Of a stretch of DNA of 6,850 nt, positions 1 to 6,850 are shown piece after piece. The stretch's first letter is position 1. Every line of letters starts with the position of its first letter. The stretch lies in the IMG/VR virus record IMGVR_UViG_2526164629_000022. The stretch is one strand, 5' to 3'. The stretch is from a virus. Lineage: Duplodnaviria; Heunggongvirae; Uroviricota; Caudoviricetes. The notes under the pieces are model-generated. The model had not been told where the DNA came from, did no database searches, and worked only from the letters and a program-made list of their open reading frames with translations. The position numbers were made by a program, and so were the translations under genes.

Positions 1-1074
1 TCATTTGTCGATTTCAATTTTGTCCCATTCCCGTCCACGGCTGTCTCTATACCGCGCCGCCATTGAATCTGATTTATGCCCGAGAAGACGTTGAGCAAAT
101 TTATCGCCAATCTGGTTCCGGTATAGCCTCGCTGACAGGCTACGCAGTTCATGGAATGTTGGCGGGTTTCCATCAAATGAGAGTCCAGATGCATTTCTCG
201 CCTTTGTAAAATACTTTGATACTGTTTTCGGGGAAAGAGGATCGTAATGCTTTGATGCGATTATAGTTTCACTGCTGCTGGCCTCCCTGCATTTCTGTAG
301 TGTATCAGCCAATGAGATATTGAGCGCGTCAATCGTTAGCGTTAGCGGAATGGCGAGTTTAGCCCCTGTTTTACTCTGTTCAATGTGAAGATGGTTGTCG
401 TTTATGTCTGACCATTTCATTCTGCACAAATCGCCGACTCTCTGCCCTGTAACGACGGCCAAATCCATCGCCAGCCTTAGCCAGATAGGGAGAGGTTCGG
501 CTGCATGGTAAATCTCGACATACTCATTAGCTGTCAGCCTTGAGCGCCTTACTTCTGACTTTGCTGTACGGGTTGCTGTTACCGGATTCGTTGCCACATG
601 CCCCTCGGCTATTGCTTCACGAAAAACGTCAACAAGGGTTGACCTGATTAATTTTGCGGAAGCTGCTTTACCTTCTGCTACGTAGGTGTTTAGCATTGCT
701 GCCACTTCTTTCGTTGATATGTCAGTGAGCGGTTTGTCCGGCAATTTTCTTCGGATTGCCCTGATTTTGCTGGCGTAGTCGAGTAGAGTTTTCGGCCTGA
801 TCCCCCTTTCGGTGAGGATTGTTTCATATCGGTCAAGCCACACATGAAGAGTGATTGCGTCACCGCCTTTAATTCTGTCTATTAGTGATTTGCGTCCGCT
901 GTCTGAGAGTAACTCAATATTGGCCTGTATTGCTTCAGTGATTGCTATCCTCCTGTCTCGGCCTAAACCAAACTCTTTACCCGTCCTTGGGTCCCTGTAG
1001 CAGTAATATCCATTGTTTCTTATATAAAGGTTAGGGGGTAAATCCCGGCGCTCATGACTTCGCCTTCTTCCCAT
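1..1074 (-). CDS. int: Tyrosine-type site-specific integrase, lambda Int family (357 aa, complete; stop codon at 1-3)
   Basis: Translation MGRRRSHERRDLPPNLYIRNNGYYCYRDPRTGKEFGLGRDRRIAITEAIQANIEL... ending ...HELRSLSARLYRNQIGDKFAQRLLGHKSDSMAARYRDSRGREWDKIEID is collinear with lambda Int as I recall it, including the C-terminal catalytic region. At 357 aa it is one residue longer than lambda Int, so it may be closer to an HK022-type integrase. The start overlaps the 3' end of xis, as in lambda. Confidence 0.96.
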   Translation of the reverse strand: MGRRRSHERRDLPPNLYIRNNGYYCYRDPRTGKEFGLGRDRRIAITEAIQANIELLSDSGRKSLIDRIKGGDAITLHVWLDRYETILTERGIRPKTLLDYASKIRAIRRKLPDKPLTDISTKEVAAMLNTYVAEGKAASAKLIRSTLVDVFREAIAEGHVATNPVTATRTAKSEVRRSRLTANEYVEIYHAAEPLPIWLRLAMDLAVVTGQRVGDLCRMKWSDINDNHLHIEQSKTGAKLAIPLTLTIDALNISLADTLQKCREASSSETIIASKHYDPLSPKTVSKYFTKARNASGLSFDGNPPTFHELRSLSARLYRNQIGDKFAQRLLGHKSDSMAARYRDSRGREWDKIEIDK

Positions 1075-1270
1075 TTCTGATCCTCTTCAAAAGGCTACCT
1101 GTTACTGGTCGATTTAAGTCAACCTTTACCGCTGATTCGTGGAACAGATACTCTCTTCCATCCTTAACCGGAGGAGGGAATATCCTGCATTCGCGCACCC
1201 ATCGACGAACTGTTTCAAGGCTTCTTGGGCGTCGCTGGCGAGCGTTCCACTCCTGAAGTGTCAAGTACAT
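1052..1270 (-). CDS. xis: Excisionase Xis (72 aa)
   Basis: From the internal ATG at 1268-1270 the product is MYLTLQEWNARQRRPRSLETVRRWVRECRIFPPPVKDGREYLFHESAVKVDLNRPVTGSLLKRIRNGKKAKS, matching lambda Xis in sequence and length. GGAG lies 9 nt upstream of this ATG. The longer 102-aa track ORF (to 1360) is an upstream extension, and the 3' end overlaps the int start by 23 nt. Confidence 0.93.
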   Translation of the reverse strand: MYLTLQEWNARQRRPRSLETVRRWVRECRIFPPPVKDGREYLFHESAVKVDLNRPVTGSLLKRIRNGKKAKS

Positions 1271-1282
1271 CGCAAAGTCTCC

Positions 1283-1296
1283 GCAATTACACGCAA
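1283..1296 (-). promoter_or_regulatory. cII-type activator site TTGCGTGTAATTGC (TTGC-N6-TTGC) just upstream of the xis start; probable pI-like int promoter region
   Basis: The minus strand reads TTGC GTGTAA TTGC, a perfect tetranucleotide direct repeat with 6-nt spacing. Lambda cII binds TTGC-N6-TTGC flanking the -35 region of pRE, pI and paQ, and pI lies at the xis 5' end. The -10 element and transcript start were not located. Confidence 0.5.
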
Positions 1297-1318
1297 GAAA
1301 AAGCCGCATTGATGCGGC
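1295..1318 (-). terminator. Rho-independent terminator (minus strand) between the 114-aa ORF and xis
   Basis: Minus strand reads GCCGCA-tcaa-TGCGGC followed by TTTTTCTT: a perfect 6-bp GC-rich stem with a 4-nt loop and a U-tract. Confidence 0.6.
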
Positions 1319-1353
1319 GATGGTAGGTCTGGATATCATTGAGCAATGAACAG

Positions 1354-1372
1354 GCCTCACCGAGTGTGAGGC
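1354..1372. other. Perfect 7-bp inverted repeat GCCTCAC-cgagt-GTGAGGC immediately 3' of the 114-aa ORF stop
   Basis: Palindromic stem-loop seen directly in the sequence. There is no U-tract after it on the minus strand, so it is more likely an RNA stability or processing hairpin, or a protein-binding palindrome, than a terminator. Confidence 0.4.
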
Positions 1373-1387
1373 GGTGTTATTTCATGG

Positions 1388-1732
1388 TTAGTCCTTGCGT
1401 AGCTCGCTGATTCTTCTGTAAGTCTCTGGTGCTTTGTTTCCGTGTATCTTCATTTCAGACTTCAACAGAGCAACGAGGGAATCCCATTCGTTGAGGATTC
1501 CTTTGAATGCCGGAACGCGCTTTGCAACCTTGTTGAATGAATCTCTGATTTCTGGAATCTGCTCAACAAGTGCAACGCATCGTCTGAAATCGGCTGCGTC
1601 ATGGGGAGCGCCGAAGTGATGACCATAGATATTCTTTTTCAGTCCACATGCGATTGAGGCAAGAGTTGCGCTACTGATGCCAACATCGCCAGTCGATTGC
1701 CATTTCAAAACCTTCATAGCCAAATCTGACAT
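1388..1732 (-). CDS. Hypothetical protein, 114 aa, no family recognised
   Basis: Single clean ORF (MSDLAMKVLKWQSTGDVGISS...RRISELRKD) with GGAG 9 nt upstream of the ATG. It has no counterpart that I recognise in lambda, where ea8.5 occupies this position. Confidence 0.7.
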   Translation of the reverse strand: MSDLAMKVLKWQSTGDVGISSATLASIACGLKKNIYGHHFGAPHDAADFRRCVALVEQIPEIRDSFNKVAKRVPAFKGILNEWDSLVALLKSEMKIHGNKAPETYRRISELRKD

Positions 1733-1746
1733 TTCTTGTCTCCAAT

Positions 1747-1768
1747 AAAAAAACCGCCATCAGGCGGC
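1747..1768 (-). terminator. Rho-independent terminator (minus strand) directly abutting the RBS of the 114-aa ORF
   Basis: Minus strand reads CCGCC-tgat-GGCGG followed by TTTTTTTT, then attGGAGacaagaaATG. This is a 5-bp GC stem plus an 8-nt U-tract. Confidence 0.65.
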
Positions 1769-1814
1769 TTGGTGTTCTTTCAGTTCTTCAATTCGAATAT
1801 TGGTTACATTGTTT

Positions 1815-2012
1815 TCATATATGAATAAATAAATTAGCTTTTTTCGTTGCCTTCGCGTTCTTTATTAATTTTGACAAAATCGTTTTTACCACGCTCTCCA
1901 AATGCGTCTTTAGAGTCGTTGTATCCGCAATCGCAGCACACATAATCATCAGACCATCCACGCATTGTTTTTCTTTTGCAATATTTCCAGAACCGCATTT
2001 TGGACAAGACAT
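1815..2012 (-). CDS. Small Cys-rich protein, putative zinc-ribbon, 66 aa as read; reading frame uncertain
   Basis: ATG at 2010-2012 is preceded by GGAGG with a 7-nt spacer. The product MSCPKCGSGNIAKEKQCVDG... starts with a CxxC pair. The track ORF start at 2045 is a TTG and is rejected. The -1 frame carries a second Cys pair (see findings). The 3' part lies in a markedly AT-rich stretch. Confidence 0.5.
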   Translation of the reverse strand: MSCPKCGSGNIAKEKQCVDGLMIMCAAIADTTTLKTHLESVVKTILSKLIKNAKATKKANLFIHI

Positions 2013-2108
2013 ATCACTACCTCCAAAGCATGAGAGAGATGACAACGTAACATTGATTGGAGATTAACAATAGATTGCTGATGTAAAAGATATGTATAAG
2101 CTTAGCTA

Positions 2109-2960
2109 TCAAAGAGGAGGTTCTGGTAGTTGCATCCAGTCGGTTACATTGCGACTCTGTGTTTCGAAAAATTCATCACCATTGCGGACAATATCGAAAA
2201 ACTCTCCGTCTCGATATTGCGCATAAAGAACGAATGCGCCATCACATAAAATAATTACGTGCTGACCATCATCTGGCATTAGCTCACTACAGCTTATCCA
2301 ACCATCCGGAGTTACCGGATAGTTGCCCGATAGTGCATTCTGCTCCAGTGATGCTTTTACAAACCACGCTGCCTGAACTATAACGCCATGAATCCAGCGC
2401 AAATCAGCATCGCGATCTTTCTTTTTCATCTTTTCGCCACTTAAGGCCTTGCTTATGTGGCTGCGTACCAGGTCTTCATGTAATTCCTTCGCCTCCTCAA
2501 TGGTGAAACCACCAGGCAGAAGAGCCGGAGTTACCGGAGAGCTGGTTGACGCTTCCGGGATTTTCCGAAAATTATTGGTTGACGAATCTTTATTTTCCCG
2601 AAAGTTTCCGGACTGAAGCATGGCTTCGCGGCAATCGTTCCAGCCTGTAGCGTATGCAGTCGCTTTGCTGCTGCCTTCAACTGGCGCATCCTGCCAATAC
2701 ATTTCTTCCGGCACTATCGGCGCTGGAGGGGCGGCAAATAGATATCCGCCAAAGTCAGGAAGCTCTCTAATGGCCTGTACGAATTTTTGTTTGCCTACGT
2801 CAACCCCTAATGGGTAATGAGCTATAATCTTTGCCACCGGCTCTGCTTCCAGCGATGCCAGCGCAATCCGTGCCAGTTCCATTTGTTCGCCACGAGTAAG
2901 CCCGTTTTCAAGCGGATTTTTAATGAACAATTCAATACGTTCTTTGGTAATAGTGGTCAT
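2109..2960 (-). CDS. DUF551-type prophage protein (Ea22-like C-terminal module), 283 aa
   Basis: The C-terminal segment DGWISCSELMPDDGQHVIILCDGAFVLYAQYRDGEFFDIVRNGDEFFETQSRNVTDWMQLPEPP has the pattern I associate with DUF551 domains of lambdoid Ea22-like proteins. AGGA lies 8 nt upstream of the ATG, and the middle region is low-complexity and Pro/Ser-rich. Family assignment is from memory, not a search. Confidence 0.7.
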   Translation of the reverse strand: MTTITKERIELFIKNPLENGLTRGEQMELARIALASLEAEPVAKIIAHYPLGVDVGKQKFVQAIRELPDFGGYLFAAPPAPIVPEEMYWQDAPVEGSSKATAYATGWNDCREAMLQSGNFRENKDSSTNNFRKIPEASTSSPVTPALLPGGFTIEEAKELHEDLVRSHISKALSGEKMKKKDRDADLRWIHGVIVQAAWFVKASLEQNALSGNYPVTPDGWISCSELMPDDGQHVIILCDGAFVLYAQYRDGEFFDIVRNGDEFFETQSRNVTDWMQLPEPPL

Positions 2961-2970
2961 TTGTTAGTCC

Positions 2971-3726
2971 TTAAAGTGCTAGTTGCAATTGCATTTCAAA
3001 GCGGTCGCGTTGTTCACAATACGCAAGAGAACCAGGGCTATTGTGTGCCTCAATCCGTTCTACCATTAATGCTGCGCGTGTCTCTTTACTTGCAGGTGCA
3101 TAAGCCCCAGACCAGGCTTTATCAATACCGATGTTTCGAGCGACGTTCGTACTATCTGCGCTGGCTAAGGGTAATTTTGTGAATATCAGCGGATTTAACA
3201 TGCGCAATCCATGTAGTTTCGTAACCGGCTGACCATGCCCATCAACAATGTGACGAATCAGGTCTTTCATTCTGGCTACCGCAAGAGTTGGGCGCTTTAC
3301 GTCATAGTCGCCACAACTACCGATAGCCACTCGCGGAAACTCATTGCACAAATGAATAAATCGCTCGTCACTTTCATTCATGTGCCACACTGGAACGCCA
3401 GCTAGTTTTCCGTGAGGCCACTCATTCAGAAGCGCATCATTTTCCTCCTCTCCGCCATCAATAACATCCGGGATAATGGCAAAATCGAATCCTGGGTGAT
3501 TCTTCCAGCGAGCAACAAACTCGTAGTAATCGCTCCAGTCGATTTTGTTTTTGCCAGCTGCTTTCCAGGCGGTGAATGCACCGTTGTCCAGCGCGAACGA
3601 CTGACAGTATTCAGCCGCGAGATTGATCTGGCCTGAATGCGCAAAACTGATAAACGCATGTCGCCCTTTCCATGCTCTCATTGCGCACGTATCAGGAGTA
3701 ATAGGCCCACCGTGGTAGTGAATCAT
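2971..3726 (-). CDS. TGT-fold protein, candidate DpdA-like 7-deazaguanine DNA transglycosylase (252 aa from the ATG at 3726)
   Basis: Starting at MIHYHGGPITPDT (GGAG 6-7 nt upstream), the protein shows, in the same order as bacterial tRNA-guanine transglycosylase: ALDNGAF (compare LTDSGGF), DFAIIPD (compare DIVMIFD), VAIGSCG (compare YAVGGLAVG), KLHGL (compare YLMGVG) and ADSTNVARNIG (compare FDCVMPTRNARNG). It lacks the C-terminal CxCxxC...H zinc subdomain, as reported for DpdA. This is motif-level recognition by eye. The track ORF's earlier start at 3768 would overlap the upstream gene. Confidence 0.5.
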   Translation of the reverse strand: MIHYHGGPITPDTCAMRAWKGRHAFISFAHSGQINLAAEYCQSFALDNGAFTAWKAAGKNKIDWSDYYEFVARWKNHPGFDFAIIPDVIDGGEEENDALLNEWPHGKLAGVPVWHMNESDERFIHLCNEFPRVAIGSCGDYDVKRPTLAVARMKDLIRHIVDGHGQPVTKLHGLRMLNPLIFTKLPLASADSTNVARNIGIDKAWSGAYAPASKETRAALMVERIEAHNSPGSLAYCEQRDRFEMQLQLAL

Positions 3727-3727
3727 C

Positions 3728-4056
3728 TCACTCTCCTTTGATGCGAATGCCAGTAGCGCGGATTGCATCGATGACTTCAGAAACTTTGTATGCCATTACC
3801 GTTTGGTAATCATCGTGAAAATCTGTTCGATGAAGCATGCTGCTACGTTCCGGGAGCAGTATTTCCCGCGCTTCCAGTTCTGCAATGCGCTTTTTTGCTG
3901 CTTCCAGTTCATCCAGTAATTCCAGCACGGTAGCCGGATTAGCCTTGGCAACAAAATCCCGGACTGGCTTACAATCAATCTCCGCAATGGGTTGATACGA
4001 TGTGTAGCCATGCTGTCTTGTATAACTACCGTGACGAATAACGAAAAAATCACCAT
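3728..4056 (-). pseudogene. Ea22-like N-terminal coiled-coil protein, interrupted by a -1 frameshift at an A6/T6 run (plus 4044-4049); about 109 aa if repaired
   Basis: The ATG at 4054-4056 opens a frame that turns to nonsense after MVIF. The adjacent frame reads as continuous protein-like sequence, FFVIRHGSYTRQHGYTSYQPIAEIDCKPVRDFVAKANPATVLELLDELEAAKKRIAELEAREILLPERSS...IRIKGE, with no start codon of its own before the GTG at 3928. One extra T in the minus-strand T6 run joins the two frames. Confidence 0.5.
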
Positions 4057-4134
4057 TTATTTTTTAGCCTGCCACTTATCTTCACCGGCTTTCTCTGCCG
4101 CTTCACGCAGTGCCTGAGAGTTAATTTCGCTCAC
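4057..4134 (-). CDS. Possible 25-aa small ORF (MSEINSQALREAAEKAGEDKWQAKK), GTG start
   Basis: The GTG start overlaps the TraR-like stop as GTGA, with AGAGAGG 6 nt upstream. Its TAA stop is immediately followed by the ATG of the Ea22-like gene (TAAATG). The short length makes this speculative. Confidence 0.25.
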   Translation of the reverse strand: MSEINSQALREAAEKAGEDKWQAKK

Positions 4135-4352
4135 TTCGAACCTCTCTGTTTACTGATAAGCTCCAGATCCTCCTGGCAACTTGCACAAGTCCGACAACCC
4201 TGAACGACCAGGCGTCTTCGTTCATCTATGGGATCGCCACACTCACAACAATGAGTGGCGGATATAGTCTGGTAGTTCAGACGACGCATTTTTATTGCTG
4301 TATTGCGCTGTAATTCTTCAATTTCTGATGCTGAATCAATGATGTCCGCCAT
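4131..4352 (-). CDS. TraR/DksA-family C4 zinc-finger protein (73 aa)
   Basis: Carries the motif CCECGDPIDERRRLVVQGCRTCASC, that is CxxC-x17-CxxC with a conserved G/P and Arg cluster. This matches F-plasmid TraR and phage TraR-like proteins, which act as RNA polymerase secondary-channel binders. The length also matches TraR. Confidence 0.8.
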   Translation of the reverse strand: MADIIDSASEIEELQRNTAIKMRRLNYQTISATHCCECGDPIDERRRLVVQGCRTCASCQEDLELISKQRGSK

Positions 4353-4401
4353 CTTTCATTAATCCCTGAATTGTTGGTTAATACGCTTGAGGGTAAATGC
4401 G

Positions 4402-4428
4402 AATAATAAAAAAGGAGCCTGTAGCTCC
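4402..4428 (-). terminator. Rho-independent terminator (minus strand) between the 71-93 aa ORF and the TraR-like gene
   Basis: Minus strand reads GGAGC-tacag-GCTCC followed by TTTTTTATTATT: a 5-bp stem plus a U-rich tract, starting 22 nt after the upstream stop codon. Confidence 0.55.
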
Positions 4429-4450
4429 CTGATGATTTTGCTTTTCATGT

Positions 4451-4732
4451 TCACCGTTCCTTAAAAACGCCGTTTAACATGCCGATTGCCAGGCTTAAAT
4501 GAGTCGGTGTGAATCCCATCAGCGTTACCGTTTCGCGGTGCTTCTTCAGTACGCTACGGCAAATGTCATCGACGTTTTTATCCGGAAACTGCTGTCTGGC
4601 TTTTTTGATTTCAGAATTAGCCTGACGGGCAATGCTGCGAAGGGCGTTTTCCTGCTGAGGTGTCACTGAACAAGCCCCATGTCGGCAAGCATAAGCACAC
4701 AGAATATGAAGCCCGCTGCCAGAAAAATGCAT
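4451..4732 (-). CDS. Hypothetical small protein in the position of lambda orf61; start ambiguous (ATG 4732 gives 93 aa, GTG 4666 gives 71 aa)
   Basis: The C-terminal 71 aa (VTPQQENALRSIARQANSEIKKARQQFPDKNVDDICRSVLKKHRETVTLMGFTPTHLSLAIGMLNGVFKER) read as protein-like. The N-terminal 22 aa from the ATG (MHFSGSGLHILCAYACRHGACS) overlap an alternative small hydrophobic ORF in another frame. Confidence 0.6.
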   Translation of the reverse strand: MHFSGSGLHILCAYACRHGACSVTPQQENALRSIARQANSEIKKARQQFPDKNVDDICRSVLKKHRETVTLMGFTPTHLSLAIGMLNGVFKER

Positions 4733-4746: not shown

Positions 4747-4934
4747 ACCTGGTCTCTTTCATCTGCTTCTGCTTTCGCCACCATCATTTCCAGCTTTTGT
4801 GAAAGGGATGTGGCTAACGTATGAAATTCTTCGTCTGTTTCTACTGGTATTGGCACAAACCTGACTCCAATTTGAGCAAGGCTATGTGCCATCTCAATAC
4901 TCGTTCTTAACTCAACAGGAGATGCTTTGTGCAT
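4743..4934 (-). CDS. Lambda orf63-like small protein (63 aa)
   Basis: [63 protein letters not shown], with GGGAGG 4 nt upstream of the ATG. Its size, position and 28-nt overlap with the next gene match the lambda orf63/orf60a arrangement as I recall it. Confidence 0.7.
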   Translation of the reverse strand: MHKASPVELRTSIEMAHSLAQIGVRFVPIPVETDEEFHTLATSLSQKLEMMVAKAEADERDQV

Positions 4935-5089
4935 ACCGCCTCCCGTTTATTATTTATCTTCTCAGCCAGCCGCTGTGCTTTCAGTGGATTTCTGATAACA
5001 GAAAGGCCGGGAAATACCCAGCCTCGCTTTGTAACGGAGTAGACGAAAGTGATCGCGCCTACCCGGATATTATCGTGAGGATGCGTCAT
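4907..5089 (-). CDS. Lambda orf60a-like small protein (60 aa)
   Basis: The ATG at 5087-5089 overlaps the exo stop as ATGA, and the product is [60 protein letters not shown]. The track start at 5095 adds two residues (MA) and is less likely. Confidence 0.65.
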
Positions 5090-5766
5090 CGCCATTGCTC
5101 CCCAAATACAAAACCAATTTCAGCCAGTGCCTCGTCCATTTTTTCGATGAACTCCGGCACCATCTCGTCAAAACTCGCCATGTACTTTTCATTCCGCTCA
5201 ATCACGACATAATGCAGTCCTTCACGCTTCATACGCGGGTCATAGTTGGCAAAGTACCAGGCATCTTTTCGTGTCACCCACATGCTGTACTGCACCTGGG
5301 CCATGTAAGCCGATTTTATGGCCTCGAAACCACCGAGCCGGAATTTCATGAAATCCCGGGAGGTAAACGGGCATTTCAGTTCAAGGCCGTTGCCGTCACT
5401 GCATAAACCATCCGGAGAGCAGGCGGTGCGCATACTTTCGTCGCGATAGATGATCGGGGATTCAGTAACATTCACGCCGGAAGTAAACTCAAACAGGGCT
5501 CTGGCGTCGTTTTCGTACTGTTTTCCCCAGGCCAGCGCTTTAGCGTTAACTTCCGGAGCCACACCGGTGCAAACCTCAGCAAGCAGGGTGTGGAAGTAGG
5601 ACATTTTCATGTCAGGCCACTTTTTTCCGGAGCGGGGTTTTGCTATTACATTATGAACTTCTGACGCTGTGATGACACCGAGCCGTAATTTGTGCCACGC
5701 ATCATCCCCCTGTTCGACAGCTCTCACGTCGATCCCGGTACGCTGCAGGATAATGTCCGGTGTCAT
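5086..5766 (-). CDS. exo: Lambda exonuclease (Red-alpha), 226 aa
   Basis: [76 protein letters not shown]...GFVFGEQWR is near-identical to lambda Exo as recalled. The start overlaps the bet stop as ATGA. Confidence 0.97.
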
Positions 5767-6548
5767 GCTGCCACCTTCTGCTCTGCGGCTTTCTGTTTCA
5801 GGAATCCAAGAGCTTTCACTGCTTCGGCCTGTGTCAGTTCTGACGATGCGCGAATGTCGCGGCGAAATATCTGGGAACAGAGCGGCAATAAGTCGTCATC
5901 CCATGTTTTATCCAGGGCGATCAGCAGAGTGTTAATCTCCTGCATGGTTTCATCGTTTACCGGAGTGATGTCGCGTTCCGGCTGGCGTTCTGCAGTGTAT
6001 GCGGTATTTTCGACAATGCGCTCGGCTTCATCCTTGTCATAGATACCAGCAAATCCGAAGGCCAGGCGGGCACACTGAATCATGGCTTTATGCCGTAACA
6101 TCCGTTTGGGATGCGACTGCCACGGCCCCGTGATTTCTCTGCCTTCGCGGGTTTTGAATGGTTCGCGGCGGCATTCATCCATCCATTCGGTAACGCAGAT
6201 CGGATGATTACGGTCCTTGCGGTAAATCCGGCATGTACAGGATTCATTGTCCTGCTCAAAGTCCATGCCATCAAACTGCTGGTTTTCATTGATGATGCGG
6301 GACCAGCCATCAACGCCCACCACCGGAACAATGCCGTTCTGCTTATCAGGGAAGGCGTAAATTTCTTTCGTCCACGGATTAAGGCCGTACTGGTTGGCGA
6401 CGATCAACAATGCGATGAACTGCGCATCGCTGGCATCACCTTTAAATGCCGTCTGGCGAAGAGTGGTGATCAGTTCCTGTGGGTCGACAGAATCCATGCC
6501 GACACGTTCAGCCAGCTTCCCTGCCAGCGTTGCGAGTGCTGTACTCAT
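5763..6548 (-). CDS. bet: Single-strand annealing protein Beta (Red-beta), 261 aa
   Basis: [100 protein letters not shown]...KAAEQKVAA matches lambda Bet. Confidence 0.97.
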
Positions 6549-6553
6549 CCGTT

Positions 6554-6850
6554 TTATACCTCTGAATCAATATCAACCTGGTGGTGAGCAATTGTTTCAA
6601 CCATGTACCGGATGTGTTCTGCCATGCGCTCCTGAAACTCAACATCGTCATCAAACGCACGGGTAATGGCTTTTTTGCTGGCCCCGTGGCGTTGCAAATG
6701 ATCGATGCATAGCGATTCAAACAGGTGCTGGGGCAGGCCTTTTTCCATGTCGTCTGCCAGTTCTGCCTCTTTCTCTTCACGGGCTATCTGCTGGTAGTGA
6801 CGCGCCCAGCTCTGAGCCTCAAGACGATCCTGAATGTAATAAGCGTTCAT
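6554..6850 (-). CDS. gam: Gam, host RecBCD inhibitor; 98-aa GamS form complete, any longer GamL N-terminus lies beyond the window edge
   Basis: [98 protein letters not shown] matches lambda Gam. The window ends exactly at the internal Met codon, so the upstream extension cannot be assessed. Confidence 0.9.

Follow-up and report, generated by a model that had tools for sequence, protein, structure and literature searches.

A one-base homopolymer contraction, probably a sequencing undercall, splits the ead/Ea22-like gene of a draft lambdoid prophage

In the draft sequence of a lambdoid prophage, an ead/Ea22-like gene is split by a run of six A's where its orthologues have seven, and the missing base is probably an undercall of the homopolymer during sequencing or assembly, rather than a change in the phage's DNA. 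The stretch of DNA that we analyzed (the window, 6,850 nucleotides) is, in reverse complement, an exact substring of contig AIGY01000028.1 of the draft assembly GCA_000250175.2. It is the early-left (pL) arm of the prophage, and the minus strand carries all of the genes. The genes, the two parts of the split gene, and the homopolymers that we will discuss are:

1-1074, minus strand: int
about 1052-1270, minus strand: xis, 219 nt (position from the annotation of 13E0767)
1388-1732, minus strand: gene for a 114-aa protein
1747-1753, minus strand, non-coding: third contraction, plus-strand A7 instead of A8 in 13E0767 and L112
about 1834-2012, minus strand: small Eag gene
1968-1972, minus strand: second contraction, plus-strand T5 where relatives have T6; it puts the 59-aa Eag / Lar-like zinc-finger gene out of frame
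2109-2960, minus strand: gene for a 283-aa DUF551 protein
2971-3768, minus strand: gene for a 251/265-aa protein
3728-4134, minus strand: ead/Ea22-like gene (PF13935; identical to WP_001289864.1 after a one-base repair; RefSeq label of the orthologous place)
3728-4063, minus strand, -1 frame: C-terminal 111 codons of the ead/Ea22-like gene (KINGDFFVIRHG...ATGIRIKGE, then the stop at 3730-3728)
4044-4049, minus strand: coding-strand T6 (plus-strand A6), unaltered in alignments with orthologues
4057-4134, minus strand: N-terminal fragment of the ead/Ea22-like gene, 25 codons (VSEINSQALREAAEKAGEDKWQAKK), from GTG at 4134-4132 to a premature TAA at 4059-4057
4060-4065, minus strand: the lesion, coding-strand A6 (plus-strand T6) instead of A7 in orthologues (alignments with FORC 064, P13374, 13E0767, and L112)
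4131-4352, minus strand: orf73, 73-aa TraR/DksA zinc-finger protein (Pfam PF01258, E = 8.4e-9; RefSeq annotation of orthologues)
5086-5766, minus strand: exo
5763-6548, minus strand: bet
6554-6850, minus strand: gam

The torS sensor-kinase gene adjoins the prophage, just beyond int (L109, 7095-8273; L076, 1-206).

Judged by its sequence, the split gene belongs to the Ead/Ea22 family. Its 135-aa form is the short one, which Stx and lambdoid prophages commonly carry, and the locus holds nothing new. If one base is added at 4060-4065, then the gene encodes a 135-aa protein that is identical to WP_001289864.1. Pfam's PF13935 (Ead_Ea22) matches residues 2-109 of the repaired protein (64.1 bits, with a cut-off of 27; E = 2.6e-17), and the break, at residues 25/26, falls inside this match. 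Homologues from the protein search have precomputed PF13935 matches as well. At the orthologous place, RefSeq has a single 135-codon "ead/Ea22-like family protein" (WP_001289864.1), with the same GTG start and the same overlap with the TraR/DksA gene, and its first 25 codons are identical to the window's N-terminal fragment. Residues 1-14 of lambda Ea22 (MSEINSQALREAAE) are also identical in the window's N-terminus. A sequence-only reading of the window had described the N-terminal fragment as a separate small ORF that is coupled to the gene downstream. Because the PF13935 match spans the break, and because the 14 residues are identical to lambda Ea22, this small ORF actually belongs to the same ea22-like gene, as its first 25 codons.

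The gene's GTG start (4134-4132) overlaps the stop codon of orf73 as GTGA, with AGAGAGG upstream of the start; orf73 lies immediately upstream and is translationally coupled to the ea22-like gene. The gene lies in the exo-xis region of the prophage, between exo/orf73 and xis/int. Directly downstream is a conserved gene for 251 aa (265 aa from the first ATG; 2971-3768, minus strand), whose ATG lies two bases past the stop of the ea22-like gene (TGAGATG). Its product matches no Pfam family and is labeled "hypothetical protein" by RefSeq.

In the deposited record, the ea22-like gene is not a single ORF: codon 25 is followed by TAA, and what remains is shifted to the -1 frame. This conserved frame is 111 codons long (4063 down to the stop at 3730-3728), and it has no ATG, GTG, or TTG before GTG 3928; the sequence-only reading had likewise noticed a long frame here that lacks its own start codon. 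Gene callers start at GTG 3928 and report a 66-aa product. The sequence-only reading was also right that a one-base change in the length of a homopolymer interrupts an Ea22-like gene and leaves the remainder in the -1 frame, but it chose the wrong homopolymer.

That reading placed the lesion at 4044-4049, and it proposed that a separate gene begins at ATG 4056, is coupled by TAAATG to the ORF upstream, and has been put out of frame because this run lacks a base. The elements are all present on the minus strand: TAAATG at 4059-4054, ATG at 4056-4054, and the plus-strand A6. Adding a base to that run does, mechanically, yield an ORF of 109 codons from ATG 4056. However, the orthologues have the same length there, and the real difference is in the neighboring run at 4060-4065 (A6 instead of A7). 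A 421-base stretch of the window has matches in 1,351 of 5,426 complete genomes of E. coli; the best of these are 99.8% identical and have one base more. When we aligned the window to FORC 064 and to phage P13374, the only gap fell within 4060-4065, the coding-strand A-run, and the run at 4044-4049 was identical in all three sequences. More broadly, 68 loci have exactly the window's local sequence at 4044-4049 (T6). A synonymous C-to-T substitution yields T7 in 7 further loci, and one draft (L107) has T5. In the orthologues, this run is read as Asp-Phe-Phe within one 135-codon ORF, and ATG 4056 is internal to an Ile-Asn-Gly stretch.

Other parts of the proposal fail as well. The frame from ATG 4056 was said to collapse after four codons, but it is open for 86 codons (3796-4056), though it is not the conserved frame. 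As a called gene, this 86-aa ORF is on record nowhere, which is consistent with a spurious frame. ATG 4056 has no Shine-Dalgarno sequence or other ribosome-binding site upstream, and the gene starts at GTG 4134 instead. The sequence-only reading had named, as grounds for abandoning it, orthologues with the same run and a short ORF that begins at GTG 3928. At 4044-4049, the run is indeed just as long in the orthologues, but it lies within a 135-codon ORF that does not start at GTG 3928. Since the unchanged run lies inside that ORF, and the upstream ORF is the N-terminus of Ea22, the alignments refute a separate gene from ATG 4056, and we give it next to no chance of being correct. The two homopolymers are just 10 bases apart, and either repair yields an ORF, but only one of the repairs gives the real gene. 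This case illustrates that frame breaks should be positioned by aligning orthologues.

The lesion in the ea22-like gene is one of three similar differences from close relatives. Over 6.3 kb, just three indels separate the window from 13E0767, the closest complete genome, and in each of them a homopolymer is one base shorter in the window. On the plus strand, these contractions are A8 to A7 (1747-1753), T6 to T5 (1968-1972), and T7 to T6 (4060-4065). Both of the homopolymers of at least 7 bases in 13E0767 are one base longer than in the window. The only substitutions are a cluster of three SNPs at a mosaic junction (2853-2868). Contig DABAZL010000086.1 of GCA_012533075.1 (L112) is the only other one on record to encode the window's exact 283-aa DUF551 protein. 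Across 3,283 bases (1242-4524 of the window), L112 has 0 substitutions and exactly 3 gaps, each of which is a one-base contraction of a homopolymer in the window. Homopolymer length accounts for every difference from L112 (3 of 3) and for every indel relative to 13E0767 (3 of 3). In L112, the Ea22-like and Eag genes are both intact.

The contraction at 1968-1972 breaks the Eag / Lar-like gene (MSCPKCGSGNIAKEKTMRGW... in relatives) by changing A6 to A5 on the coding strand. This run is T6 on the plus strand in 9 of 9 related loci, and it is longer in L112 as well. The contraction at 1747-1753 is non-coding: the A7 run is the T-tail of a terminator-like hairpin on the minus strand (AAGCCGCC-TGAT-GGCGGTTT, 1747-1770), and among relatives its length is 6, 7, or 8. 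The sequence-only reading had offered a decaying prophage as one of its options, but int, xis, exo, bet, gam, and orf73 are all intact in the window, and these three contractions are all that separate it from the sister contig L112.

Part of the 283-aa DUF551 gene (2320-2846) is a mosaic segment that does not align to the closest complete genomes, which have a dATP/dGTP pyrophosphohydrolase-DUF551 gene in its place. Just two contigs on record, the window's source and L112, encode exactly this 283-aa mosaic protein.

The A6 allele of the ea22-like gene is rare. Among the 5,426 complete genomes of E. coli, it is present at 0 of 305 places (in 278 genomes). For this search, we used a 70-base query, centered on the run. 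None of the places reached 99% identity, which implies that none of them has the A6 allele. Among viral contigs from IMG/VR, 72 have A7 and one (L026) has A6, while metagenome contigs have A7 in 23 of 23 cases. An exact-pattern scan for the tract in GTDB's species representatives, including the representative genomes of other species, found no match. In a large protein collection, the intact 135-aa protein is encoded by at least 1,000 contigs, and the 66-aa product from GTG 3928 is encoded by 27 contigs.

Some of the contigs with the 66-aa product have neighboring accessions. Among the matches listed, 5 of 10 contigs have the neighboring accession prefixes AIGG, AIGP, AIGQ, AIGR, and AIGY, and these five contigs represent at least four different prophage contexts. 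These assemblies may be drafts from the DEC collection, based on 454-type data. The same lesion in several prophage contexts, across assemblies with neighboring prefixes, is the pattern expected from systematic undercalling of homopolymers. One of the five contigs (L107) has A6 and also the adjacent T5 (about 4871-4881). When another of them (L101, with prefix AIGG) is compared to phage P13374, a reference of unknown quality, 3 of 3 gaps are in homopolymers, and two of these are expansions.

The 66-aa product can also arise from other lesions. L102 (a 4.76-Mb contig) has A9 instead of A7 (about 4860-4870), and L104 has a 2-nt deletion (TC) near codon 7 of the ea22-like gene (about 4800-4830). 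Gene callers report the same 66-aa product for L102, L107, and L104. The A9 in L102 and the deletion in L104 indicate that the ea22-like gene is sometimes broken in deposited assemblies. Furthermore, A6 is found in three divergent prophages whose sources are unrelated: L105 (GCA_023724145.1), L106 (Logan SRR10271553), and L026 (from IMG/VR). In each of these, A6 is the only homopolymer indel that we found, or one of very few. For L026, whose relatives are only about 98% identical, the sole other gap that we saw over this stretch, relative to the three closest, is outside of any homopolymer. Since L105, L106, and L026 have few or no other homopolymer indels, genuine slippage mutations from A7 to A6 probably exist, and the tract probably mutates in nature at a low frequency.

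L026 (IMGVR_UViG_3300045988_078236, which is metagenome-derived) has A6 beside the synonymous C-to-T substitution, so that the neighboring T-run has a length of 7 (5839-5871); if reliable, this is an independent occurrence of A6.

For this record, the three private homopolymer contractions, without any substitution, make an artefact the better reading. We would then have an ordinary ead/Ea22-like gene, of the functional type, in a lambdoid prophage beside torS, whose coding-strand A7 was entered in GCA_000250175.2 / AIGY01000028.1 with a base missing, leaving A6 at 4060-4065. The lost base would create the TAA after codon 25 and would shift the remaining 110 codons to the -1 frame. In the phage itself, translation would probably run unbroken from GTG 4134 as far as the stop at 3730-3728, with the GTGA overlap coupling the gene to orf73, and no special expression mechanism would be needed. 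Among the three options that the sequence-only reading had offered, the evidence thus favors a sequencing error in a homopolymer. Two points run counter to an artefact: real replication slippage would likewise favor the longest runs, and A6 is present in the unrelated loci L105, L106, and L026.

The main alternative is that replication slippage in the A7 tract truly removed one A, so that the ea22-like gene is a pseudogene whose only products are a 25-aa peptide and, perhaps, 66 aa translated from GTG 3928. The recurrence of A6 in L105, L106, and L026, without an excess of other homopolymer indels, fits with this explanation, as do the A9 in L102 and the 2-nt deletion in L104. Also, accessory genes of the exo-xis region are dispensable in the lysogen. 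(For the context of these genes, see PMC3824215 and PMC10834534.) On the other hand, a true mutation would require three independent one-base contractions, with zero substitutions, over the 3.3 kb that are shared with L112, and the 6.3-kb comparison to 13E0767 likewise has no substitutions outside of the mosaic junction. The absence of A6 from all 305 places in complete genomes, and the clustering of the lesion in assemblies with neighboring prefixes from at least four prophage contexts, also argue against it. We consider a true mutation to be rather unlikely for this record, at somewhat less than one chance in four. If the deletion is real, then the prophage has lost an accessory pro-lysogenic gene, which would be unremarkable.

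Another alternative is that the A6 allele is leaky or regulated, instead of null: at GCU AAA AAA UAA, either tRNA-Lys could slip by -1 or RNA polymerase could add an A, which would give a low level of the 135-aa protein. A -1 shift anywhere in the A-run would yield ...AKKINGDFF..., which is identical to the orthologue, and A-rich heptamers are known to support -1 frameshifting in E. coli, as with A AAA AAG (dnaX) and the A6C motif (IS1). But the out-of-frame arrangement is not conserved, as A6 is found at 0 of 305 places in complete genomes, while A7 is found in 72 of 73 IMG/VR contigs and in 23 of 23 metagenome contigs. The site has six A's after a T, not seven as in A AAA AAA or A AAA AAG. 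If GCU AAA AAA UAA is viewed as a heptamer (X XXY YYZ), then re-pairing in the A site would be perfect, but the P site would re-pair with UAA. We found no stable structure downstream (for the fold of 3975-4075, z = +0.38, and 123 of 200 shuffled sequences fold at least as well), and we noticed no Shine-Dalgarno-like stimulator immediately before the run. As for transcriptional slippage, the tracts that are known to support it efficiently are longer than six bases. Programmed or leaky slippage is very unlikely.

A related proposal is that the A7 tract (codons 24-26) of this widespread gene is a true hot-spot for indels. In Stx and lambdoid prophages, it might then switch a pro-lysogenic gene of the exo-xis region crudely on and off, or leave it leaky, and -1 slippage of tRNA-Lys could restore a little of the product from the A6-TAA form. 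The basis for this proposal is that A6, A7, and A9 alleles are on record and that the 66-aa call is found on 27 contigs from several sources. We view it as very improbable. Returning to the undercall, which we consider the probable explanation, the apparent ea22-like and Eag pseudogenes should not be counted as prophage decay or as candidate recoding sites; they are mainly a matter of quality control.

Like the programmed -1 sites of dnaX (A AAA AAG) and IS1 (A6C), the window has an A-run that is read by tRNA-Lys, and a -1 slip would join the two frames to give a single functional protein. In contrast to those sites, the norm at this locus is an in-frame A7, we found no stimulatory element, and the zero-frame product is a 25-aa stub without any sign of function.

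PMC10834534 describes lambda Ea22 (182 aa) as an early, pro-lysogenic protein from the exo-xis region. Its gene, like the window's, lies between exo and xis in the pL operon, and the two proteins have in common only the N-terminus (MSEINSQALREAAE), VLELLDE at the start of the coiled coil, and GIRIKGE at the C-terminus. However, they are only about 37% identical, over a gapped local alignment of 84 residues. The window's protein is shorter, its insert INGDFFVIRHG...CKPVRDF is unmatched in the alignment to lambda Ea22, and the lambda-type C-terminal domain is not evident in it.

A much closer match is WP_001289864.1 (135 aa), from lambdoid and Stx prophages of E. coli. Once one A is restored, the window's protein is identical to it, and the locus is also the same: the gene follows orf73 (TraR/DksA) with the GTGA overlap and is followed by the same 251-aa gene. 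The difference is that A6 replaces A7 in the window, which splits the ORF into 25 and 111 codons. The differences from close relatives also resemble homopolymer errors in draft assemblies, which give apparent frameshifts that are then annotated as truncated ORFs or pseudogenes. All of the indels are one-base contractions of the longest homopolymers, without substitutions; two adjacent small genes are "broken" in the same way; and the lesion recurs in assemblies with neighboring prefixes.
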